From the UHGV virus genome UHGV-0384735: a stretch of DNA of 42,060 bases. The stretch is one strand, 5' to 3'. The notes under the pieces are model-generated. The model had not been told where the DNA came from, did no database searches, and saw only the letters and a list, made by a program, of their open reading frames with translations. The translations under genes and the position numbers were made by a program. The stretch's first letter is position 1; the number at the start of each line of letters is the position of its first letter. Source of the DNA: a virus. Below, one piece after another: positions 15,830-41,553 of this stretch.

Positions 15830-15832
15830 GCA

Positions 15833-26972: not shown

Positions 26973-26991
26973 TCAAGTTACGGTTGTATTC
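26973..26991 (+). promoter_or_regulatory. Conserved putative late-promoter motif, copy 1 (TCAAGTTACGGTTGTATTC)
   Basis: The same 19-mer occurs at 34006 and 40945. It ends 32 nt upstream of the ATG of the gp12-like gene. Confidence 0.5.
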
Positions 26992-27022
26992 ATCCTTCGT
27001 TACTTTGTTGTAATGATGGTAC

Positions 27023-29848
27023 ATGATTCGATGCGCTTTCAACGGAGGCGAGCTTTCTCCTACTTCCGCCGTCCGGGCAGACTTGGATAATTTTCACCGC
27101 GGGGCTTCCAGGATTGAGAATCTGGACCTGGGCCAGATGGGCGGCGTTTCCCGGCGCCGCGGGTTCCGGCGCGTGGCTGCCGCTTTAGAGGGTTCCGTGA
27201 TTTTGCCTTATGTTTATTCCACCAATGACCGTTTTCTTGTGGAGGTGTCCCCTTCCCTGCTGCGCGTGTTGTCCGCCGAGGGGGATGTGGTTGCCTCCCT
27301 GCCTTCCGTGTGGAGCCAGGACGATGTTTCCGCTTTGCGCCACAAACAGGTGAACAGCATGTTGTTTCTGGCCTGCCCCACGCATGAGCTGATGGTGCTG
27401 AAACGGGATGACGAGGGCATGTTTTCCCTGGCTCCCTATGAGTTTAAGGCCCGCCCCTGGCGGTATGAGGAGTTCCGGGATTTTCCGGTGCGCCTGACGT
27501 TGGATGAGGGGTGTTACAGGGTGTCTTTCGGGGAGCATGCGTCCGATGCGGATGCGGCGGTTAACGAGGGGGATGTGATGCGCGTCCAGGTGACGGTGCC
27601 CCAGCAGACCGGGTTCAGCACGGGGGCCGTCATCCGCCAGGGCTGGGTGATTGCCAAGGCGTTTACGGCGGCTTCCTCCTATGCCGCGGGCAGGAAGTTG
27701 TGTATTAATGAGGGGAGCTATTGGTCCTGGTGGACGTGCGACAGGGATTTTAACGGGGCGGCGGATTTTGTGGACGGCCTGACGTCTCCGGCGGATTATC
27801 CGGAGCATTTTCATAAGGGTGTGATTTGCCATTCCAATACGATTACCTGCAAGGGGACCTGGACGTTTTATTGTTATAAGGAGTGGTACGGCACGTATGC
27901 CGTGGAGCGGCGTTTCCCGAATGAGGATTGGCAGCTGCTTGGTACGTCCAATTCCCCGGTGGGGGCTGCTTCCAATTTGCAGCTGACCGGGGACGAGGCG
28001 GGGGAGGAGTGTTATTTGCGCCTGATGTTGTATGAGTCCCAGCTTTCCAATGGTTCCGATCCCAGCCAGGGGTTTCCGGCTGATTCCTGCGGGAATAAGC
28101 TGGTGGTGGATGCTTATAAGAAGGATGTGGTGCTGCGGCTGCATTCCCTGTCTACCAGCGACGTGCGCAAGTTGACGCTGCCTTTGGGGAGTGATTTTTG
28201 CGATTTTTTCGAGAAGAAGGGGCTGCCGTTTTTTTCCGCATTGTTGGTTGATGGGGCCAAGGTGGACGGCGGGTTTGAGGTGTCCAGGGAGGGACGGACG
28301 CTGACGGTGAAGCCCGATGGGTTGACGACGGATGATGTCGGCGCCGGGAGTATGGTGCGCCTGGAATGGGAGCAGGCAGAGGTGAGTTTGGACCGGTTTG
28401 CGGAGGGGTCGATTGAGATGTATCGTTTTTTTCTTCCGGCGGGTACAGTCGTGTCGATGCAGGGGTTTGTCTGCGTTTATGCCGGGCAGACGATTCAGCT
28501 GAATTCAACGTTGAATGTGTGTTCTTTTTGCGAGGGCAACGGTGGTTCTTATTCGTTGATGCCTGTGTTTTCCACGATGGAGAAGGCATCTTTTACAGTG
28601 CCGGAGGACGGAGTTTATGTGGTGAGGATGGAGACCTGGCCCGGAGGGTCCGTCAGCCAACGGGCCAGAGCGCAACTGGAGGCGCCTGCCTGCACGGCGT
28701 GGATGGAGGCAGAGGCTGCCGAGGTGACGGCTTCCGCGGAGTATTCTCTTTGGGATAATATTTCCGCGGTTCCGGAGGGGGTTCCCCCGTCCGGGGAGTC
28801 GTTGATGTGGAGTTTCGCGGCGTTCCGGGGGGTGTACGGGTTTCCTTCCCTCGTGGATGTGTTTCAGCAGCGCCTGGTATTGGCCGCTACGCAGGCCCAG
28901 CCGCAGACGGTGTGGTTGAGCAAGACGGATGACCTCAACAGTTTCGAGGTGGGGAAGCAGGATGATTCCGCGCTGGCTTTGACGTTGAGCACCACAACGC
29001 AAAACAGGATTTGCTGGCTGATGGCGCAGAGTTCCCGGCTGCTGCTGGGGACGGCGGACGCGGAGTGGGCGGTGTCCGGCGGCCAGGGGGTGATGACTTA
29101 CTCCAATGCGCGGGCGGACAGCCACGGGTTTGTGGGGTCTTCCGATGTACCAGCCCTGATGGCGACCGATAAGGTGCTGTATGTGGAGAGGGGCGGCGGA
29201 CGGGTGTATCAGTACGGGTATGATTATGAGAGCGACGGGTTCGTGTCCCGCGATTTGACGGTGTTTGCCGATCATGTGCTGGCCGACGGCGGCGGGTGCC
29301 GGGGTGTTGCTTTTGTGCGCAAGCCGGAGCCGCGGGCGGTGTTTGTGCGCCGGGACGGGGTGCTGGCGCTGATGACTTATAATAGCATGCACCAGGTGCA
29401 TGCCTGGCACCGGTACACGACAGATGGGGTGTTCGAAGGGGTAGCCGTTTTGCCCAATGGGGATCAGGCGGATTTGCTGTTTGCCCTGGTGTCGCGGGAG
29501 GATGGACGGTTTATTGAGGTGCTGGCGCCGGGTAATGAGTTTCAGGATCCGGGAGGCAGGGATTTTGTGTCTGTGCTGGAGACTAACGCCCTGATTTCTC
29601 TTGAAGCTGCTGGACGCCGCCAGCATAGCGGCGGAGTGATGTTTTTCTTTGGCTCTGATGCACTGGTGGATGGTGTTGAGGTAAGCATTGACGGAACCCG
29701 TTGGGATGTACTGGACCGTTCCCCGTCTTCGTTTTTAACAAGGGGATGGCATTCTCTAGTTGCTGATGGATGCTGGAATTACGATTCCATGGTGGGCATC
29801 CGCGTTTCCGGCAACCGCGATTTCAATTTATTAGCTATTCAGGCATAA
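27023..29848 (+). CDS. Tail tubular protein B / nozzle (T7 gp12-like), 941 aa
   Basis: N-terminus FNGGELSPTSAVRADLDNFHRGASR is comparable to T7 gp12 (KNLKGGISQQPDILRYPDQGSRQ). The large Trp/Cys-rich protein is preceded by the late-promoter motif. Its stop overlaps the TerL ATG (TAATG). Confidence 0.4.
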   Translation: MIRCAFNGGELSPTSAVRADLDNFHRGASRIENLDLGQMGGVSRRRGFRRVAAALEGSVILPYVYSTNDRFLVEVSPSLLRVLSAEGDVVASLPSVWSQDDVSALRHKQVNSMLFLACPTHELMVLKRDDEGMFSLAPYEFKARPWRYEEFRDFPVRLTLDEGCYRVSFGEHASDADAAVNEGDVMRVQVTVPQQTGFSTGAVIRQGWVIAKAFTAASSYAAGRKLCINEGSYWSWWTCDRDFNGAADFVDGLTSPADYPEHFHKGVICHSNTITCKGTWTFYCYKEWYGTYAVERRFPNEDWQLLGTSNSPVGAASNLQLTGDEAGEECYLRLMLYESQLSNGSDPSQGFPADSCGNKLVVDAYKKDVVLRLHSLSTSDVRKLTLPLGSDFCDFFEKKGLPFFSALLVDGAKVDGGFEVSREGRTLTVKPDGLTTDDVGAGSMVRLEWEQAEVSLDRFAEGSIEMYRFFLPAGTVVSMQGFVCVYAGQTIQLNSTLNVCSFCEGNGGSYSLMPVFSTMEKASFTVPEDGVYVVRMETWPGGSVSQRARAQLEAPACTAWMEAEAAEVTASAEYSLWDNISAVPEGVPPSGESLMWSFAAFRGVYGFPSLVDVFQQRLVLAATQAQPQTVWLSKTDDLNSFEVGKQDDSALALTLSTTTQNRICWLMAQSSRLLLGTADAEWAVSGGQGVMTYSNARADSHGFVGSSDVPALMATDKVLYVERGGGRVYQYGYDYESDGFVSRDLTVFADHVLADGGGCRGVAFVRKPEPRAVFVRRDGVLALMTYNSMHQVHAWHRYTTDGVFEGVAVLPNGDQADLLFALVSREDGRFIEVLAPGNEFQDPGGRDFVSVLETNALISLEAAGRRQHSGGVMFFFGSDALVDGVEVSIDGTRWDVLDRSPSSFLTRGWHSLVADGCWNYDSMVGIRVSGNRDFNLLAIQA

Positions 29849-31479
29849 TGGATAATAATATAGAGATTCTGAAAGAACAGCTTTCCGACCGCGTGTGGAG
29901 GTTAAATCACTTGTACTGGATTATCAATAAAGAGGGCAAGATGCAAAGGTTCCAGTTGAATTGGGCCCAGCGGCGGCTTCATGAGCAGTTATGGTACAGG
30001 AATGACATTCTGAAAGCGCGCCAGCTGGGCATTTCCACGTATGTAGCCATGCTGATGCTGGATATGAGCCTGTTCCGGCCCAATTTCCATTGCGGTATCA
30101 TTGATAAAACTTTGGTGGATGGAACAGGCAAGATTGGCAAAATTGAGTTGGCTTACAGGAGTTTGGACTATGTACCGGATGATCCCACGGAAGAAGACCT
30201 TGCCCTGGCCGAGTTAGGACGCCTCATCAAAGGGGAGATTCAAGCCAGGCCTTCCAAAACGACGGTGTCTTTTTCCAATGGGAGTAAAATTACAGCCGGC
30301 ACATCTCTCCGCGGCGGCACATTTCAGTTTTTGCATGTCTCGGAACTTGGATACGTCGCGGCCCATGCCCCTCTGAGGGCCCGCGAGATTGTGACAGGGG
30401 CCATGAACGCCGTTTCCAAAGACGGCGTGATTGTCCGGGAATCCACCCATGAGGGAGGAAAGTTTGGCCTCAATTACGAGATGACCAAGGCGTCCATGGA
30501 GATGGTCGGCAAACCTCTTTCTTCCCTGGATTGGAAGTTTTTTTTCTTTCCCTGGTGGAAGAATCCGGAGTATTTCCTTGAAGCTGATGATGAGCATGGA
30601 TGCAGTTTCCCGGAGGATTTACAGAAGTATTTCGAGGATTTGAGGTTAAGGTGCGGCATTTCCCTGAATGATGCCCAGAAGCGTTGGTACGCCTCCCAAC
30701 ACAAGACATTTGGAGGATTGGTCCGTCAGGAATATCCTTCCACACCGGAAGAGGCGTTTCAGGCATTGGTGGAGGGATCCATTTATGGTTCTTACATGGA
30801 CGCATTACGTTCCAAGGGCCGACTATGCGCCGAGTTTGAAAAGGATGATCTGGCTCCCTATTATGTGTCCTGGGATATTGGCATGGCTGATTATATGGTT
30901 CTCTGGCTCTGGCAGGTGAGGGGAGACGGCAAGTTTTACGTGATGGATTGCTTGCAGGCCAATGAAAAGCCCTTGGAGTGGTATATCAATTTCATCCGCA
31001 CGAAGTGGGAAGTGATGTTTGGCCCCATTTACAAACATCTGGTTCCCCACGACGCAGGGAGGAGAGATCCCCACGGGATTACCTTTGACGTGTATTTGAG
31101 GCGAGCAGGGTTCAATGTGTCCGTAGTGCCGCGCATTTCCGATGTGTGGAATGGTATTTTTGCGGTACGGCGCCTCCTGAATCATTGCATTTTTCATGAA
31201 CGATGCTCCCGGCCCCTGAAAATTGACGGAGTGGAATATATGTCTGGCGTAAATGCCCTGGAGAATTATCAGAAGGCCCCGGCAGGAGCACATGGTGTTG
31301 AACGGGATACCCCCCTGCATAATAGGTGTTCTCACGCCGCGGACGCATTCAGGACATTTGCGGAAGCTTATGAAAATGGACTTGTTGGAGCAGTTGGAGC
31401 TGTTGCCATGCCTGCCCAAGCGGTAGAATCACGCCAGACACGAGGACTTGCCATAGGCGCGGATGCACTCTTTTTCTAA
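29848..31479 (+). CDS. terL: Terminase large subunit
   Basis: ILKARQLGISTY is a Walker A variant like T4 gp17 (SRQLGKT). C-terminal nuclease-like region (VMDCLQ...HDAGRRDPHGIT). 543 aa from the ATG at 29848; the tool ORF began at 29770. Confidence 0.7.
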   Translation: MDNNIEILKEQLSDRVWRLNHLYWIINKEGKMQRFQLNWAQRRLHEQLWYRNDILKARQLGISTYVAMLMLDMSLFRPNFHCGIIDKTLVDGTGKIGKIELAYRSLDYVPDDPTEEDLALAELGRLIKGEIQARPSKTTVSFSNGSKITAGTSLRGGTFQFLHVSELGYVAAHAPLRAREIVTGAMNAVSKDGVIVRESTHEGGKFGLNYEMTKASMEMVGKPLSSLDWKFFFFPWWKNPEYFLEADDEHGCSFPEDLQKYFEDLRLRCGISLNDAQKRWYASQHKTFGGLVRQEYPSTPEEAFQALVEGSIYGSYMDALRSKGRLCAEFEKDDLAPYYVSWDIGMADYMVLWLWQVRGDGKFYVMDCLQANEKPLEWYINFIRTKWEVMFGPIYKHLVPHDAGRRDPHGITFDVYLRRAGFNVSVVPRISDVWNGIFAVRRLLNHCIFHERCSRPLKIDGVEYMSGVNALENYQKAPAGAHGVERDTPLHNRCSHAADAFRTFAEAYENGLVGAVGAVAMPAQAVESRQTRGLAIGADALFF

Positions 31480-31492
31480 ACTCCACCGAAAA

Positions 31493-31514
31493 GCCACACG
31501 TCAGCCACACGCCA
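31493..31514 (+). repeat. Tandem GCCACACG(T/C)CA repeats, a candidate integrase arm-type site (P arm)
   Basis: gccacacgtca then gccacacgcca, 14 nt after the TerL stop and about 100 nt left of the att core. A mirror pair sits at 31726-31748. Confidence 0.45.
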
Positions 31515-31616
31515 CAAGCATTAAATAGATATAATTTAGATGTACGACCAATTTCAAAAATATTGAAATTACAATGATATGGTAAAATACTTTAGTCTGC
31601 CTTAATGATAAAATCT

Positions 31617-31663
31617 GCATGGGGTGCAGGGGGTCGCAGGTTCGAATCCTGTCAACCCGACCA
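31617..31663 (+). tRNA. Partial tRNA (3' T-arm, acceptor strand and CCA only). This is the attP core.
   Basis: gcagg-TTCGAAT-cctgt T-arm, then caacccg acceptor 3' strand, discriminator A and CCA, ending at 31663. No D-arm or anticodon arm lies upstream, where the sequence is an AT-rich tract. It is adjacent to the integrase. Confidence 0.6.
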
Positions 31664-31668
31664 TTTTT

Positions 31669-31708
31669 AACCGCTGTAAGATGAAACGCTTACAGCGGTT
31701 TTTGTTTT
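31669..31708 (+). terminator. Rho-independent terminator
   Basis: aaccgctgtaag-atgaaac-gcttacagcggtt hairpin followed by tttttgtttt. Confidence 0.7.
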
Positions 31709-31725
31709 CCCCTGTTTTTAGATTA

Positions 31726-31748
31726 GCCACACGTCAGGCCACACGTCA
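31726..31748 (+). repeat. Tandem GCCACACGTCA repeats, a candidate integrase arm-type site (P' arm)
   Basis: gccacacgtca then ggccacacgtca, between the att core and the int start. Confidence 0.45.
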
Positions 31749-31763
31749 AAATGAAAAAATGTT

Positions 31764-32870
31764 GTGTTGGGGTCACAGGAATGGCAAGAGATGGGTATGC
31801 GTCAATACTTCGAGCCTACCGATTACGCCCACTTGTACCGGGAAAAGAATTCTGGCATTTACTATGCTCGTGTGGATTCCAGACAAGGTGGCCGAAAAAC
31901 GATAAGACGTTCACTTAAAACAAAGGATATAAATGAGGCTATTGCCAAAATGGCTGCCTTTTTGCAGGAGATGGGGACAAATACCCCGACTATCGGAAAC
32001 ATCTCTTGGTATGTAGCAGTAGATACCTACATTGCCCAGCAAAAGATGAGGCCCAATCTTAAACCTAGGGCCCTTGAATCTGCTCTGCTTTTCGCGGAGC
32101 ATGCTCGCAAGCTGGTTGAACAAGATGTGGCAGCGGAAGCCATCACGGCCAATATGTGCCGGTTATGGTGGACCAAAAAAGCACAGAGTTGTTCGCCAAG
32201 AACGGCCAATGGAGCTCTTGGTGCAGTTCGAAAAATATTTGCTATGCTCAGGGATTCCGGGTACGTAGTTTCAGACCCTACCGCAAAACTGGAGAGATTG
32301 AGTCTGAAACCGACGGAATTTTTCATCCCGGGAAAAGAAGAATTTGTTCGTATTGTAGAAGAAATCAGGCGTGCTCCTTTACTGCGAAAGTACCGGGAAA
32401 AGAGCCTTGATTCCCCTGCAGCAGATATGGTGGCTTTTTTGGCCTACTCTGGTCTGCGGATTGAAGAAGCCCGACGCTTGGTATGGGGCGATATTGGAAA
32501 AGACTCCATATCCGTCCCGGCAATTAAACATGCAGTCAAAAGACGGATATTGTATATTAACCCAGCTCTACGGGATGTGATTGAGCGGATGAAAAAAACA
32601 AACAATAACTTGACCGCAACATCTCCTGTGTTCGTTATTGAAAACCCAAGGAAAGCTCTTACAAATGCCTGTGTCCGCCTGGGGTTGCCCCATGTCCGGG
32701 TGCATGATCTGCGCCATTTTTTCGCCACGACGTGTATTGAGCAGGGAGTAGATATTCCGACCGTGGCCAAGTGGCTGGGGCACCAGGACGGTGGAGCTCT
32801 CGCCATGCGGGTGTATGGTCATTTGCGCGACGAGCACAGCAAGGAACAGGCTTCCAGGCTGCGCTTTTGA
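31764..32870 (+). CDS. int: Tyrosine recombinase / integrase
   Basis: C-terminal catalytic region RVHDLRHFFATTCIEQGVDIPTVAKWLGHQDGGALAMRVYGHL (R...H-x-x-R...Y). The tool start is a GTG at 31764; an in-frame ATG lies at 31791 (MGMRQYFEP). Confidence 0.85.
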   Translation: MLGSQEWQEMGMRQYFEPTDYAHLYREKNSGIYYARVDSRQGGRKTIRRSLKTKDINEAIAKMAAFLQEMGTNTPTIGNISWYVAVDTYIAQQKMRPNLKPRALESALLFAEHARKLVEQDVAAEAITANMCRLWWTKKAQSCSPRTANGALGAVRKIFAMLRDSGYVVSDPTAKLERLSLKPTEFFIPGKEEFVRIVEEIRRAPLLRKYREKSLDSPAADMVAFLAYSGLRIEEARRLVWGDIGKDSISVPAIKHAVKRRILYINPALRDVIERMKKTNNNLTATSPVFVIENPRKALTNACVRLGLPHVRVHDLRHFFATTCIEQGVDIPTVAKWLGHQDGGALAMRVYGHLRDEHSKEQASRLRF

Positions 32871-32875
32871 TTGTT

Positions 32876-32917
32876 TTGTTCAAGTCGTGGGCGTTTTTGT
32901 TCAAGTCGTGATTGTAT
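32876..32917 (+). promoter_or_regulatory. Variant late-promoter motif upstream of the capsid gene: tandem TTGTTCAAGTCGTG repeats, the second in the TCAAGT-N5-TTGTAT arrangement
   Basis: ttgttcaagtcgtgg at 32876-32890 and ttgttcaagtcgtg at 32897-32910, followed by attgtat, which gives TCAAGT-cgtga-TTGTAT at 32901-32917. This is 34 nt upstream of the capsid ATG. Confidence 0.4.
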
Positions 32918-32950
32918 GTTTCCAGTCACGTTCCGTGCAATGACAGGGGC

Positions 32951-33943
32951 ATGGAGTTTAATCTTTCTATTGCAGATATACTCCGCACGAAGTATTCAAC
33001 AATTTTCGAGCGTGAGATTCAACAGGTTACGTCTATTCTTGAGCCGTATTGTTCCGTTCTCCCCGGTCGCGGGAAAGATATGGAGATTCCCTATGTGGGT
33101 AAGACGGAGTTCAAGGAGATCGGCAACAGATTCGTAGAGGCCAGCCCGCACGAGCTTTCCATGGGGAAGCGTGTAATTAAACCTCAACGTTATGCGGACT
33201 CTCTTCACAAGGATGATATTGACAACATCCTATTGAACGACCTTGAACTCAGTATCAGCGATTTTATCGCGGAAATGAAGAAGGCCGGCAAGAGGCTGCT
33301 TGATCAGGTTTTGCTTGGGGTGGTTCCCGATACGGATAATCCCGGAAAGTTCCGCATCCGTACAACTTCGGATAGTGTTTGCGGGGGAATGCTTGCACCT
33401 AATTACACGGGCAATTCAGGCGCCACGTTGACCAATCTTGATCCAAGCCTGGTTGTTCCTGCTGATTTCAAGATGGATGGAACGAAGAATCCTGCCGGGT
33501 TCCTGCTGGACCAGATTGTTGAAGCCAAGCGCATGCTGGAAGAGAATTACGCATGGGACGAGGCTTCCGGCGACACTCTTTGTCTGGCGATTTCCTCAAC
33601 GATGAAGGCGCAGATGATCATGTGGGAGGAGCAGAAGAATAAGAATTACGGTTTTTCCGTGCTGGAACATGGCAAGGTGAATCCAATGCTGAATGTCCGA
33701 TTCCTGGTCACGAATATGCTTCCGTTTGATGAGGACGGCAATCGTATTTGTCCGATGTGGGTCAAGAGCCGCCTGGTTCTTTCTCCGTGGGATCAGATGA
33801 AGTTTTCTATCGTGCGACCGGACAAGTATCAGAACCTTTCTGTTGTTCGAGCAGATGCCGCTTGCATGTATGGGGCTTCCAGGAAAGACGAAAAATCTTT
33901 CGTGCAGATTCTTTGTAAGGAGAAGGCGACGGCTGGAGCTTAA
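32951..33943 (+). CDS. Major capsid protein (T7 gp10-like, HK97 fold)
   Basis: About 330 aa from MEFNLS. The C-terminus KFSIVRPDKYQNLSVVRADAACMYGASRKD resembles the C-terminal strand region of T7 gp10A. The size matches gp10A, and the gene is preceded by the late motif. Confidence 0.55.
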   Translation: MEFNLSIADILRTKYSTIFEREIQQVTSILEPYCSVLPGRGKDMEIPYVGKTEFKEIGNRFVEASPHELSMGKRVIKPQRYADSLHKDDIDNILLNDLELSISDFIAEMKKAGKRLLDQVLLGVVPDTDNPGKFRIRTTSDSVCGGMLAPNYTGNSGATLTNLDPSLVVPADFKMDGTKNPAGFLLDQIVEAKRMLEENYAWDEASGDTLCLAISSTMKAQMIMWEEQKNKNYGFSVLEHGKVNPMLNVRFLVTNMLPFDEDGNRICPMWVKSRLVLSPWDQMKFSIVRPDKYQNLSVVRADAACMYGASRKDEKSFVQILCKEKATAGA

Positions 33944-33975
33944 TTATCTTTCCAGGGTATTCGTTGTTGTTTGTT

Positions 33976-34010
33976 CCGCTCCCTGTTTCGGCAGGGAGCG
34001 GATTTTTTTG
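33976..34010 (+). terminator. Rho-independent terminator after the capsid gene
   Basis: ccgctccctg-tttcggc-agggagcgg hairpin followed by atttttttg. Confidence 0.7.
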
Positions 34011-34024
34011 CTTGTTCAAGTTAC
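34006..34024 (+). promoter_or_regulatory. Conserved putative late-promoter motif, copy 2
   Basis: TCAAGTTACGGTTGTATTC directly after the terminator and 42 nt upstream of the tail-fibre ATG, which has an AGGGAGG RBS. Confidence 0.5.
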
Positions 34025-34065
34025 GGTTGTATTCGTGCGGCAAAAATGTGTGCTAAGAGGGAGGC

Positions 34066-36123
34066 ATGTTAGATTTCCTGGGCGTCACGGAACATTTTTC
34101 CTGCATGGAGAATACTCCGTTTTCCTTCCCTGCCCTGTTTCGGGATATGGCAGGGGAAGCCGTTTCTCTGGACGGCGTGATTTTTTCAGGGAGCATTGTA
34201 TCCGCCAATCAGGAGATGGTAGAGATTTCCATTGAGAAGGGGGAGTCTTCTAATGAGGTGATTTTTTCATTCCCCGCCTTGCCAGAAGGAAGATGGTCTT
34301 ACAATGTCCTGGTTCAGGCAGATGATGGTTCCCAAAGAATTTTGTTTTCCGGGTATATTTCCGTACTCGGTGTTTCTCGTGTCGCACAGTTGGCAGGCGG
34401 TCCGCCAATGAAGAACCGGACGCTGCTTGTCGCTATGCCTGGGGAAGCGACAATGCGTCTCCGTATGGAGTGGATGGCTACTACTGCTGCACAGGCTTTT
34501 GCCTATCATGCGCTCCAGGCTTCCAAGAATGCTCATGCGGACGCAGAAACGGCGAGCCAGGCGGCCAAGACGGCAACGGACGCGGTAGCCACCGCTGCAG
34601 GACGGGCCGAAGAGGCGGAAGGCTATGCAGGGTCTGCCTGGGCCTCCAAAAATGCTGCCGCCGATTCTGCAGCCGCAGCCGACACATCCGCAACCAACGC
34701 GGACCGTGACGCCAAGAGTGCCCATGACGCTAAAACGGCTGTGGAGTCGCTGGCCGCCACCTGGCCGGAAACGGTCAGCAACGGGGAGAAGAAGATTGTT
34801 GATGCCGGGAATGAGGCTGTTACTGCCATACAGGACAAGCAAGCCGATTCTGTTCTTGCCGTGGGACGTGCCTCACAGACCGCGCAGCAGAATATAGCCG
34901 GCGCACGAACGGATGCCGTTGCCGCCGTGCAAACGGCGCAGGAGAGAGCGGTGGGGGCGATTACGCCCCTTGTCCAGCGCGCCGAAACCGCTAAAGAGGC
35001 TATAGATCAGGCGGAGGGACGCATCAATACGGCCGCGACTAATGCCGCGACATCCGCCACGGAGTCGGCTAACTCCGCGACGGCGGCCCAGCAGGCTCTG
35101 GCGGCCATACCTCAAGTAGATGATGCAGGCAACATGACGATTCCCGGAGGTCTGACGGCGGCGGGGACCGTCAACGCCAACGGCGGCGTCAACATCCCTC
35201 TTGCCGTGGGGGCACCGACCGATACGTCAGCGGTCAACTGTCTTTATGCTATGGGTCTGGCAGGAGCCGTACAGGCGTTGATTCAGCCAATATACCTTAA
35301 TTCCAGTTCGATCACAGTCGCGGGTTCCATTTCTAAATCTTCCAACGGTACTCTTGCCGGGTTGACGCAGCGTTTTTCGGTGGGCGCAGCTTCTGCCGGG
35401 TCCAATGCGTACGGGTCAGCGGTTATTCCCCTGATAGGGCCTAACGGTCAATTTAATTACAGTTCCGTGTGCGGATTTTCCCTTGCGGTCAACGCGACAG
35501 CCTTCGCTAAATTTACTTTTGGCATAGGCCGCGGCTCAAAAACCAACAGAACCGGGTTGACGATGGATTCTTATTCTATGATTCCGGGGAACGAGCTGGC
35601 CGTCAACCATGGGGAAATCATCGATGTTACCATCAATACGCCTTACGATACTGTCCGCAAGGGGTATGAAATCAGAGTAAGGGAAATCTTTTATGTATCG
35701 TCCGTTGGACACTGGCAGGTGAAGACGACAACCGTATTTCTTCCGGTAGGCCATAATGAGCTGATGCCAAACGGGCTGAACAGGCTTATTTACATGCAGA
35801 GCGGGCAGCCGAGTACAGCAGTGCGGGAGGAAAAGGCGGCTCTTTATATGGAGCTGGGAGGCGGCAGTACCAATACCCTGTTCAAGATAGCTTCTCTCCG
35901 CGGCTTCATCGCTTTCGAGGCAGGAACAGGCGTAAGCGCCCTGATTATCGACGCGCGCAATGAGAAAACATATGCCCTTTCAGCCGACGCGGGCACAGGC
36001 ACCAGGCACCTTTATGCCAATGGATTGACCAATCCAACCTATCACGCATTGGAAGCAATGGCCGTCAATGCTATTGAAGCCGAAGAAACGGCAGATTTTG
36101 TGGACATTAACATACCTCTCTAA
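34066..36123 (+). CDS. Tail fibre protein (Ala-rich coiled-coil shaft plus C-terminal receptor-binding region)
   Basis: 685 aa. It has a long A/T/Q-rich heptad-like region (AAQAFAYHALQASKNAHADAETASQAAKTATDAV...) typical of phage fibre shafts. Confidence 0.6.
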   Translation: MLDFLGVTEHFSCMENTPFSFPALFRDMAGEAVSLDGVIFSGSIVSANQEMVEISIEKGESSNEVIFSFPALPEGRWSYNVLVQADDGSQRILFSGYISVLGVSRVAQLAGGPPMKNRTLLVAMPGEATMRLRMEWMATTAAQAFAYHALQASKNAHADAETASQAAKTATDAVATAAGRAEEAEGYAGSAWASKNAAADSAAAADTSATNADRDAKSAHDAKTAVESLAATWPETVSNGEKKIVDAGNEAVTAIQDKQADSVLAVGRASQTAQQNIAGARTDAVAAVQTAQERAVGAITPLVQRAETAKEAIDQAEGRINTAATNAATSATESANSATAAQQALAAIPQVDDAGNMTIPGGLTAAGTVNANGGVNIPLAVGAPTDTSAVNCLYAMGLAGAVQALIQPIYLNSSSITVAGSISKSSNGTLAGLTQRFSVGAASAGSNAYGSAVIPLIGPNGQFNYSSVCGFSLAVNATAFAKFTFGIGRGSKTNRTGLTMDSYSMIPGNELAVNHGEIIDVTINTPYDTVRKGYEIRVREIFYVSSVGHWQVKTTTVFLPVGHNELMPNGLNRLIYMQSGQPSTAVREEKAALYMELGGGSTNTLFKIASLRGFIAFEAGTGVSALIIDARNEKTYALSADAGTGTRHLYANGLTNPTYHALEAMAVNAIEAEETADFVDINIPL

Positions 36124-36125
36124 TC

Positions 36126-36530
36126 ATGAATAATGCAGAGATACAGATTCAGTTTCCCCAGCCGGGACAGTGGGATGAATTTACCCTGACGCCCATTTAT
36201 CAGGACGCGGACGGTTACACCCGGACAGACCGCTACACAGCGGACGAAATTCCGGCGAACCAGACCCCGGCCATGGCCGCCGTCGTTGCCGCTCTGGTGG
36301 AACTGGGCGAGGACTGGCAAGCCGTCCAGGTATGGGCAAGGCTGGGAAAAGATGTCCTGACCCTTGCGGAGGATGGTGCCTATACAATGATTGATGCGGT
36401 GTCTTTGACCGTTGAGGCCGTCCATGCGGAGACCAAAGGCCGCAGGATTTTTACAGTCTCGGACTACCCGGCTTTTATCATCACGGACCCCGCCGCCGTG
36501 GAGTTTTTCAAGCATTTCACTACTAAATAA
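36126..36530 (+). CDS. Hypothetical protein. Possible tail-fibre assembly or chaperone by position.
   Basis: 134-aa ORF 3 nt after the tail-fibre stop. Confidence 0.3.
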   Translation: MNNAEIQIQFPQPGQWDEFTLTPIYQDADGYTRTDRYTADEIPANQTPAMAAVVAALVELGEDWQAVQVWARLGKDVLTLAEDGAYTMIDAVSLTVEAVHAETKGRRIFTVSDYPAFIITDPAAVEFFKHFTTK

Positions 36531-36531
36531 T

Positions 36532-36822
36532 ATGAGCACGAATAAAGAAAAAGTGAGTTGGCTGACTGGTCTCCTGACCGGTTGGGGTATCAAAGAGAGT
36601 TGGGCAAAAGTCATCGCCGGAGCTGTGATTGGGGCCCTGGTTGCTGCGGGGATTCTGACGCAACCCGGCTGCGGCCATTCCGTGGACGTGACGCCGGAAA
36701 AGACGGTGGTATGCAAAGACGGCTCCTGCCTGGTGCTGGAACCGGGGCATATTTCCTATTCCCAGGCCCAGCCTGTTACGGACGTTCCGCCCGTTGTTCA
36801 GATCGTACCTTCCAAGAAATAA
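36532..36822 (+). CDS. Small membrane protein of the lysis cassette (holin-like, one TM)
   Basis: MSTNKEKVSWLTGLLTGWGIKESWAKVIAGAVIGALVAAGILTQPGCGHS..., 96 aa, upstream of the endolysin. Confidence 0.35.
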   Translation: MSTNKEKVSWLTGLLTGWGIKESWAKVIAGAVIGALVAAGILTQPGCGHSVDVTPEKTVVCKDGSCLVLEPGHISYSQAQPVTDVPPVVQIVPSKK

Positions 36823-36826
36823 GGCC

Positions 36827-37054
36827 ATGTGCAAACCCCTCAAGGAATATCTGGGAGTGATCCGCGATTATACGCGTGAGATCGTCACTTTCGGCGGTTT
36901 TGTGATAGCCGTGTTCATCTACCTGGATTTCCGCGAGGTGGTGAAGGAACAGGCTGCCAACGCGGCCCATACGGCGGAGATCCTGCGGACGATGGATACC
37001 CGTCTCCAGCATTTGGAGAATTACCACCAGCAACAGCTTAAACAGCGAGATTAA
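36827..37054 (+). CDS. TM plus coiled-coil protein (i-spanin-like or antiholin-like)
   Basis: 76 aa from the ATG at 36827. TM segment IVTFGGFVIAVFIYL, then a coiled-coil C-terminus (RLQHLENYHQQQLKQRD). Confidence 0.35.
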   Translation: MCKPLKEYLGVIRDYTREIVTFGGFVIAVFIYLDFREVVKEQAANAAHTAEILRTMDTRLQHLENYHQQQLKQRD

Positions 37055-37112
37055 TTCCAACTGTAAAGTTTTTCTTACAAGTTCCCTTTAGTTAATAATC
37101 AATAGTTTCCGC

Positions 37113-37301
37113 ATGCCTACCCTGTACATACTCATTGTGGACGAACCCGGAAAGGAGCAGTGGATGAAAATTTTTCTTACCGAAAGAGACGCCGCTTTTT
37201 TCCTGGCTCAATTCAATGAGTGGCATTTGCATGCCAAGTGTCATTGCTACACCGTGGAAGGCAAGCGGCTTGTGCAACTTATCGACAATCTGAACGAATG
37301 A
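37113..37301 (+). CDS. Hypothetical 62-aa protein
   Basis: ORF whose stop overlaps the endolysin start (ATGA at 37298). Confidence 0.3.
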   Translation: MPTLYILIVDEPGKEQWMKIFLTERDAAFFLAQFNEWHLHAKCHCYTVEGKRLVQLIDNLNE

Positions 37302-37879
37302 ATCCTACAGAAAGAAAGATGGCCGCAGCCATCCTCCGCTTTGAAGACAGCCGCGTTACCGGGCCGGATTCCCTGCGCGTTTCCCGCCTTCCTGCCGCCG
37401 ACAAGGGCGGCAAGTGGGAGATTTGCGGCATTTGCGACGGTATTGAACCGGCCGTGTTTAACAGATTGAAGGCCCTGCTGGATGCCGGAAGGCGTGAAGA
37501 GGCCTGGGAAGGTTGTCTCCAGTATGTCCTGGATAATACCGCCGCCGTGCGCTCCTGGCTGGGTTCCGACGCTTTTCCGGCCACGGAGTTTATGTTGCGG
37601 GACCATTTTTTCAATTCCGGGAGCAGGAATACCGGGAAGATCCTACAACGTGCATTGAACATCCACGGCGCCGGGCTTGTGGTGGACGGGATTGTCGGCC
37701 CCAGGACCCGGCAGGAACTACAGGACCAGCTGGCCGCCACGGGTGAAGCGGTGTTCCTTATCGCCCTGCAGGAGAAGCGTCAGGCGTTTTACCGCTCATG
37801 CAAGCAGTTTTCCGTGTTCGGGAAGGGTTGGCTGAACCGCTGCGACGATGCGTTCAGCGTGGCGCAGAAGCTTGTTTAG
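37298..37879 (+). CDS. Endolysin: GH108-like lysozyme domain plus a peptidoglycan-binding (PG_binding_3-like) domain
   Basis: AAILRFEDSRVTGPDS...DKGGKWEICGI is comparable to the GH108 ILxxEGGyxxDPxDxGGxTxyGI region. The C-terminus LQRALNIHGAGLVVDGIVGPRTRQEL...GWLNRCDD matches a peptidoglycan-binding repeat. Confidence 0.65.
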   Translation: MNPTERKMAAAILRFEDSRVTGPDSLRVSRLPAADKGGKWEICGICDGIEPAVFNRLKALLDAGRREEAWEGCLQYVLDNTAAVRSWLGSDAFPATEFMLRDHFFNSGSRNTGKILQRALNIHGAGLVVDGIVGPRTRQELQDQLAATGEAVFLIALQEKRQAFYRSCKQFSVFGKGWLNRCDDAFSVAQKLV

Positions 37880-37898
37880 TTGTTTTCCATTAGTTGTT

Positions 37899-38189
37899 AT
37901 GAGTTCAAATCCATTAAAAGCTGTCGGAGGGGCCCTGGCAAATATCGCCACGTTCGGGGGATATGGAGCCAATAAGGCGGCCAAGAAGCAGGCAAGCGCC
38001 GCCAACGCTATGGCCGATGCCATGGCGAATGCCCCGGAGCAGAAGGTTATTACTACGGAAACCAAGGATGTTTCCCAAGCGGAGGATGCGGTGAATTCGT
38101 CTGCCCGCCGCCGCTTGAAGCTTAGTAATACGACGAACCGGAGTAATCCTCTTTCTTCCCTGGCTGGCCTGAGGAAGACGCTGGGTTGA
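37899..38189 (+). CDS. Hypothetical Ala/Lys-rich small protein (96 aa)
   Basis: ORF from the ATG at 37899, between the endolysin and the portal. Confidence 0.3.
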   Translation: MSSNPLKAVGGALANIATFGGYGANKAAKKQASAANAMADAMANAPEQKVITTETKDVSQAEDAVNSSARRRLKLSNTTNRSNPLSSLAGLRKTLG

Positions 38190-38207
38190 TTTTTACACAG
38201 GAGATTC

Positions 38208-39875
38208 ATGGAAAATGTTAAAGATTTATTGAGGACGGCAGACGCCCTGTTCACGGAGATGAATAAGAATTCCGGGGATTGGGATGAGTTGCGCCGTCGC
38301 ATCATGCCGAGAATGGAGGGGAAGGCCCGCCAGCAGGAACAGGCTAATGAGATGACGGCTGCGTCCAGTTTTTCTCCGGTGGCGCATAAGTCCCTTTTGA
38401 ATTTGGCGTCCGCTCATCTTCTTTTTATTACTCCCATGGATCAGAAGTGGTTTTCCCTGCGGCCACAGGAGGAAAGGGATGATTACACCGATGAGGATGA
38501 TTGGTACAGCAAAGCGACGGAGGCCGTCTACCGTGCACTGGCGGATTCCAATTTCTATGCGGCGGCCCACGAGGTTTACCTGGACCGTTGCCTGACGGGT
38601 ACAGGCTGCATGTTTGCAGATGTTTCCCGTGACGGGTCACTGGTGTTCAAACACGTCCCTACCGGGACTTATGCGATTGCCGAGGGAGCCCACGGGGAGG
38701 TGAATACGCTGGTGCGGACGTTGAAGTTTACTGCCCAGCAGGCCGTGGAGATGTTTAAGCTGGGTAATCTGCCTGTCAAGATTCAGGAGGCGTATAAGAA
38801 TGCGGAGAGGCGGTACACCGAGATGTTTGAGTTTGTTCACCTTGTACTGCCCAACAGCCGGTCGCAGTTCGGTTCCGACATGGTAAGGCCTGGCCGCCGC
38901 AAGTGGTTGGACGTGTATATTGCCAAGGAGGCGGAGAAGATTGTTTTCCACGGCGGCTTTTACGAGTTTCCTTTTCTGGTGACGCGCTTTTTGAAGGGCG
39001 GCGTTTCTTCTTACGGCGAGGCTCCGGGCAAGGCTGTGCTGCCGGAGATCAAGGCTACCCTGCTGATGGATCGGGTGATGGATGTGGCCGGCAGCCGGGC
39101 GGCCATTCCCAGCGTTATCGTGTCGGCTAAGATGGCAAAGGAGGTTGATTTGCGGGCCGGAGGCAAGACGGTTGTTCCGGATGAGCTTATTGGTTCACAG
39201 TTACCGAGAGAATGGGCGAACGTGGGGGATGTGAGGTTTATGCTGGAGCGGCAAGATAAGAAGGAGAAGTTGATCAGGGAGGCGTTTTTCAATGATATTC
39301 TCCAGGTGGTTTCAAGCGTGGACCGCGAGATGACGGCTACGGAGGTGAATGCCCGCGAGTCGGAACGCATTATTTGCTTTTTTTCTTCTTTTATTCAGTT
39401 TTCGCAGGATTTTCAGACGATGATGAATCGCATTGTCTGCCTGATGTTCCGCAATACGCAGGGGGCCGTGCTTCCGGGCGACGCGCCCGATGAGTTTTTT
39501 GTCCGTTCCGCCGATGGGGGGAAGTTTGAGTTGCGGACTCCCCGCACCCGTTATCTGGGCAAGATTGCCCAGGCATTTGACCGTTTGCAGAGGTACGGCC
39601 TTGAGGGGGTGTTGAATGGGTTGGCGAAGTATATCCAGGTTTCGGGCGATACCCGCATTGCCAAGCGCATGAAGGCATGGGAGGTGTTGCGGTTTATGTG
39701 GGACAGTTCCGGCGCCCCGTCCAAGTGCATTGTGTCCGCGTCCGAGAATAGCAAGATGGTTGAGGAGGAGAAGGCGCAGGAGGATCAGATGCGTCAGGCC
39801 GCCCTTGCGGAGCAATTGGCCAGAGCCGGCAAGGATAGCGCCGCGGCGTCCGCACAGTTTAATACGGATTCATGA
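38208..39875 (+). CDS. Portal / head-to-tail connector protein (T7 gp8-like)
   Basis: 555 aa, the same size as gp8. EIKATLLMDRVMDVAGSRAAIPSVIVSAKMAKEVDLRAGG...DREMTATEVNARESE parallels gp8 (...SMISSKVIGLVNPAGITQP...GERVTAEEIRYVASE). Acidic/Ala-rich C-terminal tail. AGGAG RBS. Confidence 0.65.
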   Translation: MENVKDLLRTADALFTEMNKNSGDWDELRRRIMPRMEGKARQQEQANEMTAASSFSPVAHKSLLNLASAHLLFITPMDQKWFSLRPQEERDDYTDEDDWYSKATEAVYRALADSNFYAAAHEVYLDRCLTGTGCMFADVSRDGSLVFKHVPTGTYAIAEGAHGEVNTLVRTLKFTAQQAVEMFKLGNLPVKIQEAYKNAERRYTEMFEFVHLVLPNSRSQFGSDMVRPGRRKWLDVYIAKEAEKIVFHGGFYEFPFLVTRFLKGGVSSYGEAPGKAVLPEIKATLLMDRVMDVAGSRAAIPSVIVSAKMAKEVDLRAGGKTVVPDELIGSQLPREWANVGDVRFMLERQDKKEKLIREAFFNDILQVVSSVDREMTATEVNARESERIICFFSSFIQFSQDFQTMMNRIVCLMFRNTQGAVLPGDAPDEFFVRSADGGKFELRTPRTRYLGKIAQAFDRLQRYGLEGVLNGLAKYIQVSGDTRIAKRMKAWEVLRFMWDSSGAPSKCIVSASENSKMVEEEKAQEDQMRQAALAEQLARAGKDSAAASAQFNTDS

Positions 39876-40132
39876 TGAATATGTTTGAAGATAAGCCGAC
39901 ACCGGAACAGGTTGAGTTTCTCAAGAGGCTCAACCGGAGGCGAGCCGCGCTGAAGGAGGCTTTTACTCCGGAGGTGCTGGATATTTTAGAGAAGGAGTTC
40001 CAGACGAATTTGCCCTGCTTTCAAGGGAAGGCTGGTTCCTACGACCCCCTTGACGCGATGCGCCGAGACGCCCAGCGGGAAATGCTCCTGTGGGTGAAAT
40101 ACGAGATCGAACAATATAACCCTGATTTATGA
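39872..40132 (+). CDS. Hypothetical 86-aa protein
   Basis: Translationally coupled (ATGA) between the portal and the scaffold-like gene. Confidence 0.35.
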   Translation: MMNMFEDKPTPEQVEFLKRLNRRRAALKEAFTPEVLDILEKEFQTNLPCFQGKAGSYDPLDAMRRDAQREMLLWVKYEIEQYNPDL

Positions 40133-40872
40133 TATACAATAGATTATTCCACAATAGGTTCCTGAGGGAAGAGGCCATTCCCGGCAGCGAAGGTGAAGGC
40201 CCCGGCGGCGGAGCGCCGCCCCCGGCAAGTCCCGTGGACAGTCCGCCTCCCGCGAATCCTCCAGTCCCGTCCAATCCCTACGATTTTTCAGGGGGTGCGG
40301 AACAGCCCGATCCGGATCCCGGCAGTCCTCCCCCGCTTTCTCCGCAGGAGGAGACCGAGTATGAGATTGATTTTGGAGAGGGGTTTGTGGAGAATGATGC
40401 CCTGCGAGATATGTTGAAGGGTCATGCCAGGGCGGCAGGGCTGCCGGCCGATGCCGCCGGGAAGTTTCTTTCCGAGGTGGCCGCCAGCATCCGCGCGGAC
40501 GAGGAGGCTGCTTTTAAGGAGGCTGACGAGGCGTTGAAGGACGAATGGGGAGCGGAGTATGAGACGAATGTTTCTGCCGCCAAGGCGTTTGCCCGGAAGC
40601 TTTCCGTGGAGTCCGGCGTTTCTATGGAGAAGATGGCTGTGTTTGCGAGTCCGGACGGGTTCCGCGTTCTGCACGCCATTTCCCGGCTGACAGGCGAGGG
40701 AGGCTTGAAGGGCGGCGGCCAGATTCCGGCGAAGACGGATCCTGCCGACGAGGCTCAAGCTATTTTGTCCGACCCCAATCACCGTTATTATAAGGCGATC
40801 GCCGATCCTTCGCATCCACAGTGGCGGGAGGCTACCGATTATTATAATAAGCTGGTGGGGATTTCCGGTTAG
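40129..40872 (+). CDS. Putative capsid assembly/scaffolding protein
   Basis: 247 aa, acidic, with a Pro-rich N-terminus and a helical C-terminus. It follows the portal as gp9 does in T7. Confidence 0.35.
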   Translation: MIYNRLFHNRFLREEAIPGSEGEGPGGGAPPPASPVDSPPPANPPVPSNPYDFSGGAEQPDPDPGSPPPLSPQEETEYEIDFGEGFVENDALRDMLKGHARAAGLPADAAGKFLSEVAASIRADEEAAFKEADEALKDEWGAEYETNVSAAKAFARKLSVESGVSMEKMAVFASPDGFRVLHAISRLTGEGGLKGGGQIPAKTDPADEAQAILSDPNHRYYKAIADPSHPQWREATDYYNKLVGISG

Positions 40873-40900
40873 TTTTTTTTGCGTTGACTATTGGTTCGGA

Positions 40901-40939
40901 GGGGTGTCCTGCTGTGCGGGGCACCCTTTCTTTTTTTTA
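40901..40939 (+). terminator. Probable rho-independent terminator
   Basis: GC hairpin (gggtg...caccc) followed by tttcttttttttat. Confidence 0.5.
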
Positions 40940-40944
40940 TTTGT

Positions 40945-40963
40945 TCAAGTTACGGTTGTATTC
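40945..40963 (+). promoter_or_regulatory. Conserved putative late-promoter motif, copy 3
   Basis: TCAAGTTACGGTTGTATTC 21 nt upstream of the tubular protein A ATG (40984), immediately after the terminator. Confidence 0.5.
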
Positions 40964-40983
40964 ATCAGGCCTGGGGATGTGGC

Positions 40984-41553
40984 ATGATGCCTCAAATGGA
41001 TAAGGTGACCGTTTTTAACCAGGCTTTGGCCCAGTTTGGGGACCGGGAGTATGTGAAGGGTTCCCCAGCCGGTCGCACCGTTGATTTGTGGTGGCCTACC
41101 GTGTTGCGGGAAGCGCTGTTGTTCGGGGCATGGACCTGGGCAACCAAACGTGTTGAGATGGATCGCTCCGTTATGAGGCATCCGATTCCGGATGATTGCC
41201 TGCGCGTGCTGTATGTGGGGGCGGATTTGTTCCGCATTGAGGGGCGTGATTTGGTGGTTGAGCGTTACGGAAAACGCGCCGCCGGGACCGATAAGCTGGT
41301 GGTGGATTATCTTTCCGACGAGGTGGCCCGTTCCGAAGTGCTGCCGGATCACAGTCCGTTTTTTATCAAGGGCGTTGTGTTTCTTCTGGCGGGCAGGTGC
41401 GCTTTGAAGCTGGCTTCTTCTCCCCAGCTTGCGGCCGCTTTGGAGGCACAGGGGGAGGCGTTTTTAAGCAAGGCCCTTTATTGGGACACCTGCCAGCATT
41501 CTTCCAACGACCAGGATCCTTTAACAGAGATTTTAAGCAGTTCCATTTTCTGA
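40984..41553 (+). CDS. Tail tubular protein A (T7 gp11-like)
   Basis: MMPQMDKVTVFNQALAQFGDREYVKGSPAGRTVDLWWPTVLREALLFGAWTW parallels the T7 gp11 N-terminus (VNDILASIGEPPVSTLEGD...RRILNKINRQIQSRGWTF). About 190 aa, the same size as gp11. Confidence 0.55.
   Translation: MMPQMDKVTVFNQALAQFGDREYVKGSPAGRTVDLWWPTVLREALLFGAWTWATKRVEMDRSVMRHPIPDDCLRVLYVGADLFRIEGRDLVVERYGKRAAGTDKLVVDYLSDEVARSEVLPDHSPFFIKGVVFLLAGRCALKLASSPQLAAALEAQGEAFLSKALYWDTCQHSSNDQDPLTEILSSSIF

Follow-up and report, generated by a model that had tools for sequence, protein, structure and literature searches.

A repeated motif upstream of virion genes in an Akkermansia phage, a probable part of activator-dependent late promoters

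Copies of a repeated motif, TCAAGT-N5-TTGTAT-TC, precede virion genes in the virus genome UHGV-0384735. The stretch of 42,060 nucleotides that was analysed (hereafter the window) has a G+C content of 53% and is, judged by its sequence, a temperate, podovirus-like Akkermansia phage or prophage. The repeated 19-base motif is real and non-random. It is very probably a late-promoter element, and most likely it would not be a whole promoter by itself, but the upstream half of a composite one. The reading proposed here, which is considered fairly likely, takes the motif as the binding site of an activator in the upstream part of four late promoters, which would depend on this activator in the manner of class II promoters. 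Such a composite promoter would consist of a phage-specific element of about 20 bp (TCAAGT-N5-TTGTAT-TC) at about -50 to -32, a spacer of 18-19 bp of free sequence, a sigma-70-type -10 hexamer at -12 to -7, often with TG at -15/-14, and a G-rich discriminator ending in C, with the A of the start codon at +1. The first gene of each late unit would then be translated from a leaderless mRNA or from one with a 1-nt leader. The candidate for the activator is a small MarR-like winged helix-turn-helix (wHTH) protein that is encoded next to the small terminase gene terS.

Occurrence of the motif

The exact 19-mer, TCAAGTTACGGTTGTATTC, is present in three copies, all on the + strand (Table 1). The chance expectation is about 0.01 even if three mismatches are allowed, and none of 100 shuffles reached three copies. 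The broader pattern TCAAGT-N5-TTGTAT occurs four times in the window, compared to about 0.10 expected occurrences. Its fourth copy is a variant, TCAAGTcgtgaTTGTAT, at 32901-32917. At the same place TTGTTCAAGTCGTG is found twice (32876-32889 and 32897-32910), and a distal partial copy of the motif starts 21 nt upstream of the proximal copy of the capsid gene. All copies are in gene-sense orientation and 5′ of virion genes; the downstream genes encode the phrog_376 tail protein (27023), the major capsid protein (32951), a 685-residue protein (34066) and the phrog_394 tail protein. By inspection, the 19-mer matches its own reverse complement at 6 of 19 positions and is not palindromic.

An earlier note, made by a model from the sequence alone, had described this repeat as a putative late promoter. 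Its observation is partly confirmed. The repeated 19-mer is borne out by the three exact copies, and the fourth, spacing-preserving copy with an extra half-site is present as described. The second copy starts at 34016 instead of 34006, and the distances to the ATG, the number of copies behind terminators and a tail-fibre label given in that note need the corrections that follow. The copies do lie 5′ of virion genes, but profile scans gave no hidden Markov model (HMM) match that supports the label 'tail fibre' for the 685-residue protein.

In 185,579 species-representative genomes, an 18-mer search returned five stretches only. Two of these belong to one prophage in an Akkermansia metagenome-assembled genome, and the other three are unrelated genomes with chance-like matches. 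A motif equally frequent in host DNA, which the earlier note named as a point that would speak against its proposal, is thus not what is seen: the 18-mer is absent from host genomes beyond this prophage, save for the chance-like matches. In IMG/VR, 76 stretches contain the exact 19-mer; all belong to near-identical phages, which carry the motif in the same three places. A degenerate scan of IMG/VR with GTTCAAGTNNNNNTTGTAT gave mostly unrelated chance matches and was uninformative. The motif was not found in the Akkermansia phages Chantilly and Moulinsart.

Architecture of the putative late promoters

In the following, position 1 is the T of TCAAGT, and numbering relative to the ATG takes the A of the start codon as +1. 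The ATG is located at motif position 51 in copies 1-3 (27023, 32951 and 34066) and at position 52 in copy 4 (40996). The distance from the 3′ end of the 19-mer to the ATG is therefore 31 nt in copies 1-3 and 32 nt in copy 4, which replaces the range of 21-42 nt in the earlier note. In copy 4 there is a second in-frame ATG at 40984. Position 2 of the phrog_394 profile aligns to residue 36 of ORF 40891, i.e., to ATG 40996, and because the profile alignment begins there, 40996 is the likely start of this gene rather than 40984.

A second, weaker element is present between the motif and the ATG. It is a -10-like hexamer at -12 to -7, which reads TAATGA, AATGAC and TAAGAG in copies 1-3 and CATGAT, one nucleotide closer, in copy 4. 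The distance from TTGTAT to the hexamer is 21 bp. TG is present at -15/-14 in three of the four copies of the window, and C is present at -1 in three of the four as well.

The motif itself does not read as a sigma-70 or a sigma-54 promoter. A sigma-70 promoter scan of the window called none of the four motif sites, and a -35/-10 reading of the motif fails in every register tried by hand, in agreement with the misfit that had been reported before. A sigma-54 reading (-24/-12, GG-N10-GC, TGGCAC-N5-TTGCW) has the same 6-N5-6 layout, but CA/AA replaces GG and GT replaces GC. Since there is no usable -35 element, host RNA polymerase with the housekeeping sigma factor would need help at these sites. 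The -10 at a fixed distance and the ATG at +1 fit host RNA polymerase, housekeeping sigma factor and an activator better than a new sigma factor or a phage RNA polymerase. Among the factor types that the earlier note had listed, a late activator is thus in line with the sites, whereas a new sigma factor fits less well next to a sigma-70-type -10 at a fixed distance.

Alternatively, the motif could suffice as a promoter, which a sigma-like factor or an RNA polymerase specified by the phage would read. Transcription would then start a few nucleotides after TTGTATTC, giving a 5′ untranslated region of about 20-25 nt in which the G-rich run serves as ribosome-binding site. The conserved block of about 19-23 bp is similar in length to promoters of single-subunit RNA polymerases, and both the misfit to a -35/-10 pair and the G-rich runs before the ATGs would agree with this. 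However, no sigma factor or RNA polymerase domain was detected in any open reading frame (ORF) scanned against PHROGs, Pfam and NCBIfam. Only 1-3 nt separate the G runs from the ATG, too few for a Shine–Dalgarno sequence, and these runs are not conserved at orthologous sites, where the conserved feature is instead a TATAAT-like hexamer at a fixed position with A at -11. Moreover, few genes of this phage are preceded by Shine–Dalgarno sequences, and the exact spacing of 31 nt to the ATG, combined with an unconstrained spacer, would go unexplained. This alternative is considered unlikely. A T7-like single-subunit RNA polymerase promoter was rejected, as no RNA polymerase domain was found in the large ORFs and the conserved block ends 31 nt before the ATG, separate from the -10-like element.

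Related phages allow a comparison of the same sites. Distant relatives were reached via homologues of the wHTH and capsid proteins; a query with a single capsid sequence gave only relatives at least 98% identical, and an alignment reached the distant ones. A plain listing of k-mer repeats in divergent loci was too noisy to use. In total, 17 sites were tabulated, from the lineages L215, L223, L279, L224, L289, L225 and L239. The 19-mer of copy 1 is found with the same spacing of 31 nt and different spacers in L211, L215, L293 and L295. In the lineage of the window, the 19-mer and 'gtaatgatggtRcATG' are invariant, and spacer positions 24-33 vary; among relatives the conserved sequence at the hexamer of copy 1 is 'gtaatgatRgtRcATG'. 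The capsid copy varies in this lineage only in N5, which is mostly CGTGG, else CGCGG or TGCGG; CGTGA in the window is a singleton. The capsid sites of relatives read TCAAGTCGTGGTTGTAT, TCAAGTCGCGGTTGTAT or TCAAGTTGCGGTTGTAT, each 31 nt before the ATG.

Relatives with a 39-50% identical capsid protein have the same geometry with other 20-mers, for example TTAACTCYRTGTTCAT and TTCACTCCAGCTTCAT. In L224, L286 and L289 (capsid 48-50% identical), TTAACTCYRTGTTCATRYC is present before the nozzle gene and the homologue of the 685-residue protein and twice before the capsid gene, with a gap to the ATG of 31-32 nt and with TATAAG, CAGGGT, AATGGT or GATGGT at -12 to -7. In L225 (capsid 49%), two copies of TTCACTCCAGCTTMAT precede the capsid gene and a third follows the terminator of this gene, with a gap of 30 nt and with TATACT at -12 to -7 of the gene next after capsid. 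In L223 (capsid 86%), TCAAGTTKCGGTTGTT is followed by an unrelated G-rich spacer and then by TATGAT-gacggc-ATG or TATAAG-gggtgc-ATG. The sites orthologous to copy 3 have TATAAG (L224, L289) or TATGAT (L223) at -12 to -7; the spacers of orthologous sites are unrelated in sequence. L239 (capsid 39%) keeps GATAAG-ttcggc-ATG, but no second copy of its upstream element was found within 21 kb, and this lineage therefore adds little. In general, the lineage-specific elements are repeated before the same genes, in gene sense only, and are confined to the late region; about 10 kb of the early region contain none of them.

Over the 17 sites, the gap between motif and ATG is 30-32 nt in all except the capsid site of L223, which has only a partial copy in register. 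The mean match to TATAAT peaks at offset -12, with 3.35 out of 6 compared to at most 2.24 at the other 24 offsets, and A is present at -11 in 15 sites. The two copies at the capsid promoter are exactly 21 nt apart, i.e., two helical turns, in the window, L224, L289 and L225, and 22 nt apart in L223. Leaderless geometry of the late promoters is, on this evidence, probable. The spacing could additionally help annotation. Automatic gene calls run the capsid gene and the gene of the 685-residue homologue upstream through the promoter (P0016; L289 15021; L223 11016), as in a capsid protein called with 358 instead of 330 residues, the capsid gene of L289 and a call of 723 residues in L223. Gene callers would then place several starts upstream of the true, promoter-defined ATG, and the promoter geometry is likely to give the true gene starts.

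A further feature is shared by lineages with different motifs, namely G-G-C just before the ATG, with G at -2 in 14 of the 17 sites and C at -1 in 14 of the 17. Selection of the start site (Y at -1, R at +1), a preference in the discriminator or a context required for leaderless translation could account for it.

Leaderless initiation is also suggested for a promoter without the motif. A leftward promoter at 26940-26911 (- strand; TTGACA, 18 nt, TATATT; 11 of 12 in the sigma-70 scan) has a -10 that ends 7 nt before ATG 26903, so that a canonical promoter of the same phage would be leaderless as well. For the host, a Cappable-seq study of mouse-gut A. muciniphila (PMC4782308) reported about 10% leaderless start sites and sigma-70-like -35/-10 signals.

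The sequence context of the motif bears on two further explanations. Mosaic junctions of relatives (IMG/VR L001-L076) fall exactly at the 5′ edge of the motif, and in one contig the copy-3 motif and its leader are fused to the nozzle gene exactly at the ATG. These abrupt changes of context, together with the leader fusion, indicate that the unit from motif to ATG behaves as a cassette, and conserved promoters seem to act as recombination patches. Such junctions, and the position of copy 2 next to the integrase gene, would also be expected if the motif were a non-transcriptional DNA site, i.e., a recombination or module boundary, an integrase arm site or a packaging signal. This is very improbable, because four different start codons and the -10-like hexamer all lie at a fixed distance from the motif and its orientation is strictly gene-sense. 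Other lineages moreover keep the architecture while their motif sequences differ; one of them, L224, lacks an integrase at this position. Recombination at conserved promoters is an expected side effect rather than a primary function.

Secondly, the motif could act at the RNA level, for example in processing, in antitermination or as an operator of translation, since it is located between terminators and start codons. In the window, strong intrinsic terminators precede copies 3 and 4 only, i.e., two copies and not three as previously noted; copy 1 is located in a divergent promoter region and copy 2 directly after the integrase stop codon. In L215 and L295 the nozzle-gene copy does follow a terminator, unlike copy 1 of the window. 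The position 3′ of strong terminators in fact counts against an RNA element, as these two copies would rarely be transcribed from upstream. The four regions have no shared fold and are not unusually stable (z -0.96 to +1.0), Rfam gave no matches, and the lineage variants show no compensatory pattern. A function at the RNA level is therefore scarcely probable.

Candidate specificity factor and known activators

The element differs between lineages and is consistent within each of them, so the phage should encode the determinant of specificity, and there is good confidence that the specificity of the late promoters is phage-encoded. The same geometry combined with lineage-specific motifs in four or five lineages supports the earlier reading of late promoters that are served by a phage-specified factor. 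The wHTH gene that had been put forward for this role keeps its place directly 5′ of terS in every lineage, and the recognition helix of its product is conserved or altered along with the motif.

The assignment of the protein to the wHTH fold is based on several searches. In Pfam, HTH_24 scores 22.5 bits, above the cut-off of 21.9, and MarR scores 20.5 bits, below the cut-off of 24.6. The AlphaFold2 model has a pLDDT of 80.7, and the top 50 Foldseek matches of this predicted model are almost all of the MarR family, with a probability of 1.00 and TM values of about 0.6-0.77. A profile search of the PDB additionally matched a MarR protein (E 2.7e-5). The protein has 102 residues, fewer than MarR proteins typically have. 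No PHROG family matched it, and its Pfam matches are wHTH families only. Its own family is very small: 5.8 billion proteins contain 17 clusters of it.

Homologues that are 74-92% identical keep the predicted recognition helix VSS[ST]RLCFHL[NQ]TL and are found with the identical 19-mer. The homologue of L224 and L289 is 30-33% identical, has the helix LSEQHVCRI[IL][KR]YL and goes with a different motif; other proteins of the same phages are better conserved (TerS 39%, the 347-residue protein 48%, capsid 48-50%). From these comparisons the wHTH protein is a candidate for the late-promoter specificity factor with slightly better than even prospects. Other proteins were considered and rejected. 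The 347-residue protein encoded at 23992-25035 is a poorer candidate, as searches detected neither a DNA-binding domain nor a relative of solved structure, and in L211 its N-terminal domain is replaced by another with the motif unchanged. HTH_17 proteins are encoded in L224 and L289; the window lacks a counterpart of them.

A protein of this type could alternatively repress the late genes. The motif would then be an operator at which a MarR-like or other phage protein represses intrinsically active extended -10 promoters, delaying or silencing late genes. MarR-family proteins are typically repressors, the predicted fold of the wHTH protein matches this family, and TG at -15/-14 in some sites could support initiation independent of a -35. 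However, the wHTH gene is located deep in the lytic early/middle operon beside terS and is not placed for expression in a lysogen. Weak -10 hexamers in the absence of a -35 are moreover expected to give low intrinsic activity, and a second site two helical turns upstream at the capsid gene, for which demand is highest, suits activation better than repression. Repression is accordingly judged improbable.

In the activation mechanism that is preferred, the early/middle operon would produce the MarR-like wHTH protein, which would act like a class II activator and bind the element whose centre is near -41. At the capsid promoter, a second wHTH site two helical turns upstream, near -62, would presumably serve higher output. 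The bound protein would recruit or stabilise host RNA polymerase on promoters that have a -10 and no -35, and transcription would start at or beside the A of the start codon. Terminators, which follow TerL (31669-31700), the gene of the capsid protein and that of the scaffold-like protein, would insulate four late units: the nozzle-like protein with TerL, the capsid protein alone, the 685-residue protein through lysis, portal and scaffold, and the tail tube with a giant internal protein. As a variant of this mechanism, TTGTAT (TTCAT in other lineages) may be an out-of-phase -35-like hexamer, 21 bp from the -10, and the factor would realign both. A realignment of promoter elements has been described for protein C of phage Mu at Pmom (PMC4461284).

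Several points weigh against this reading. The hexamers of the window are weak, as TAATGA, AATGAC and TAAGAG are without T at -7, and G at -7 is frequent across lineages. In copy 3, the run AAGAGGGAGG is a possible Shine–Dalgarno sequence if the start of transcription lies upstream, and in copy 4 the alternative ATG 40984 has a GGGGA run 6 nt upstream. The co-variation of regulator and motif comes from only two clearly different regulator lineages, and the hosts of the divergent lineages have not been established. MarR dimers usually bind palindromes or pseudopalindromes, which the element is not, and MarR proteins are more often repressors. From sequence we infer the transcription start sites, the binding and the identity of the binding protein, and activation rather than repression.

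The proposed architecture has counterparts in described systems. At class II promoters the activator site is located at about -41.5, and tandem sites at -41.5/-61.5 are called 'class III', with CRP and FNR as paradigm. The phage sites are similar to these in having an activator-sized element centred at about -41 over the place of the -35, a -10 that is kept and a -35 that is missing, with a second site two helical turns upstream at the promoter with the strongest demand. They differ in that the element is asymmetric and not an inverted repeat, that all phage promoters are predicted to be leaderless, and that the candidate is modelled as a minimal MarR-like wHTH protein and does not have the CRP/FNR fold.

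The sites of protein C of phage Mu, another late activator, are dyad-symmetric. In the phage studied here a few late promoters with a poor or absent -35 would likewise carry the site of one phage activator at or just upstream of the -35, and this activator would also be made from a middle operon. In contrast to Mu, the 19-mer is not dyad-symmetric, no Pfam or PHROG match to C or Mor, which are another protein family, was found in the window, and Mu late mRNAs have leaders. The Mu late promoters activated by C are lys, I, P and mom, and the activation modes of CAP are summarised in the same source (PMC4461284).

A parallel in gene position is provided by temperate phages of Gram-positive bacteria. 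As in those phages, a small DNA-binding protein, here a candidate, would be encoded directly 5′ of terS and turn on the genes for packaging, morphogenesis and lysis; the late activators RinA, ArpU, LtrC and Alt are encoded just upstream of terS in this way. There is no sequence relationship, given that the wHTH protein matches no PHROG family, and only the terS-proximal position is shared. Their late genes usually form one long operon from terS, whereas here there are four promoters and terS is not behind a motif. Lastly, the middle promoters of T4 depend on MotA and AsiA, a case of sigma appropriation in which the MotA box is centred at -30 and AsiA is needed as co-factor. A phage-specific box replaces the -35 and the sigma-70 -10 of the host is kept in both cases, but no homologues of MotA and AsiA were detected here and the phage element is located 10 bp further upstream.

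Late promoters that depend on a phage activator are thus a known kind, while the wHTH protein belongs to none of the activator families compared and its site is asymmetric. What is noteworthy is the uniform, predicted leaderless architecture and the apparently orthogonal, lineage-specific pairs of protein and site, with TCAAGT-N5-TTGTAT, TTAACT-N4-GTTCAT and TTCACT-N4-CTTCAT as the motifs. It is a tentative and still doubtful generalisation that the whole late programme runs via leaderless mRNAs from promoters without a -35, with a minimal MarR-like protein replacing -35 recognition and with orthogonal pairs in sister lineages. Were it to hold, late-gene timing would be tied to leaderless (70S-type) translation initiation, and the pairs would be a natural set of orthogonal activator–promoter switches for Verrucomicrobia.

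A literature search found no published description of the promoters of this prophage. To our knowledge, nothing is known of gene regulation in Akkermansia phages, and the host phylum has almost no characterised phage regulation. Akkermansia is a gut bacterium of medical interest for which few genetic tools exist. If the reading of activator-dependent late promoters is correct, this would be the first defined late-promoter architecture of a Verrucomicrobia phage and a clear example of a phage whose late transcription units all begin with a leaderless mRNA. It would moreover provide a compact pair of regulator and promoter by which expression in Akkermansia could be induced; natural variants of the pair, apparently orthogonal, number at least two or three.

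Genome context

The features of the window are listed in Table 1; genes were annotated by HMM scans of ORFs against PHROGs, Pfam and NCBIfam.

Table 1. Positions of the putative late promoters and of other features in the window
Feature	Position	Strand	Remarks
CI-like S24 repressor	16601-17377	-	HMM annotation
347-residue protein	23992-25035		Rightward early/middle operon
Candidate specificity factor, 102-residue MarR-like winged-helix protein	25032-25340	+	Last but one gene of early/middle operon
TerS	25333-25929		Rightward operon; HMM annotation
Leftward 325-residue gene, phrog_8999	25926-26903	-	Between terS and late genes
Putative late promoter 1, upstream element (exact 19-mer)	26973-26991	+	About -50 to -32 of ATG 27023
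Putative late promoter 1, -10-like hexamer TAATGA	27011-27016	+	-12 to -7 of ATG 27023
phrog_376 tail/nozzle-like protein	27023-29848	+	HMM annotation; followed by TerL
TerL	29770-31479		HMM annotation
Terminator after TerL	31669-31700
Integrase	31764-32870		HMM annotation
Putative late promoter 2, distal partial copy TTGTTCAAGTCGTGggcg	32876-32893	+	21 nt 5′ of proximal copy; centre about -62
Putative late promoter 2, proximal upstream element TCAAGTCGTGATTGTATGT	32901-32919	+	Before major capsid ATG 32951
Putative late promoter 2, -10-like hexamer AATGAC	32939-32944	+	TG at -15/-14
Major capsid protein	32951-33943	+	HMM annotation
Intrinsic terminator ending capsid unit	33975-34002	+	12-bp stem, 8 GC pairs, T run
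Putative late promoter 3, upstream element (exact 19-mer)	34016-34034	+	Before ATG 34066 of the 685-residue gene
Putative late promoter 3, -10-like hexamer TAAGAG	34054-34059	+	TG at -15/-14
685-residue protein	34066-36123	+
Portal protein	38208-39875		HMM annotation
Scaffold- or protease-like protein	40129-40872		HMM annotation
Intrinsic terminator ending transcription unit 3	40898-40930	+	15-bp stem, 9 GC pairs, T run
Putative late promoter 4, upstream element (exact 19-mer)	40945-40963	+	Before phrog_394 tail gene
Putative late promoter 4, -10-like hexamer CATGAT	40983-40988	+	TG before it; predicted start A40995 or A40996
phrog_394 tail protein	from 40996	+

Annotated genomes of A. muciniphila include the capsid protein. 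The rightward early/middle operon encodes DUF2303, RecT, an exonuclease, RusA, the 347-residue protein, the wHTH protein and TerS. Between terS and the late genes, the slot of the phrog_8999 gene is occupied by different genes or by none in the relatives L215, L293 and L295, and looks like a moron or cargo position. The copy-4 unit runs across the window ends, with a 652-residue protein (524-2482) and a 3222-residue polyvalent protein. The latter, encoded at 2500-12168, is a protein of the virion module with ART-PolyVal (ADP-ribosyltransferase) and LPD3 polyvalent-protein domains, and is presumably an ejected internal protein.

The integrase gene is located inside the block of virion genes, between TerL and the capsid gene. 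In integrated relatives (L211, L215 and L223 loci), the neighbours of TerL on one side and of int on the other are host genes, which means that attP must be at about 31480-31763. Integration splits the late region, parting the nozzle/TerL unit from the remainder.

The lysis cassette at about 36050-37885 is 87% identical in DNA sequence to the siphovirus-like Akkermansia phage Chantilly (ON453895) and 77% to Moulinsart, phages whose genomes are unrelated to the window outside this cassette. Such identity amid unrelated genomes points to module exchange between Akkermansia phages.

On the - strand, adjoining the CI-like repressor, the region 14726-16585 encodes a TcmP-type 'three-Cys-motif partner' (TIGR04474, E 3.5e-30, with a weak GMT-wHTH match) and a DUF5131 protein (E 3e-99); this pair may be an accessory or defence module. 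Lastly, the ORF at 13228-14121 encodes a staphylococcal-nuclease domain, joined to a 'PBCV-specific basic adaptor' domain at the C-terminus (Pfam E 4.9e-7).

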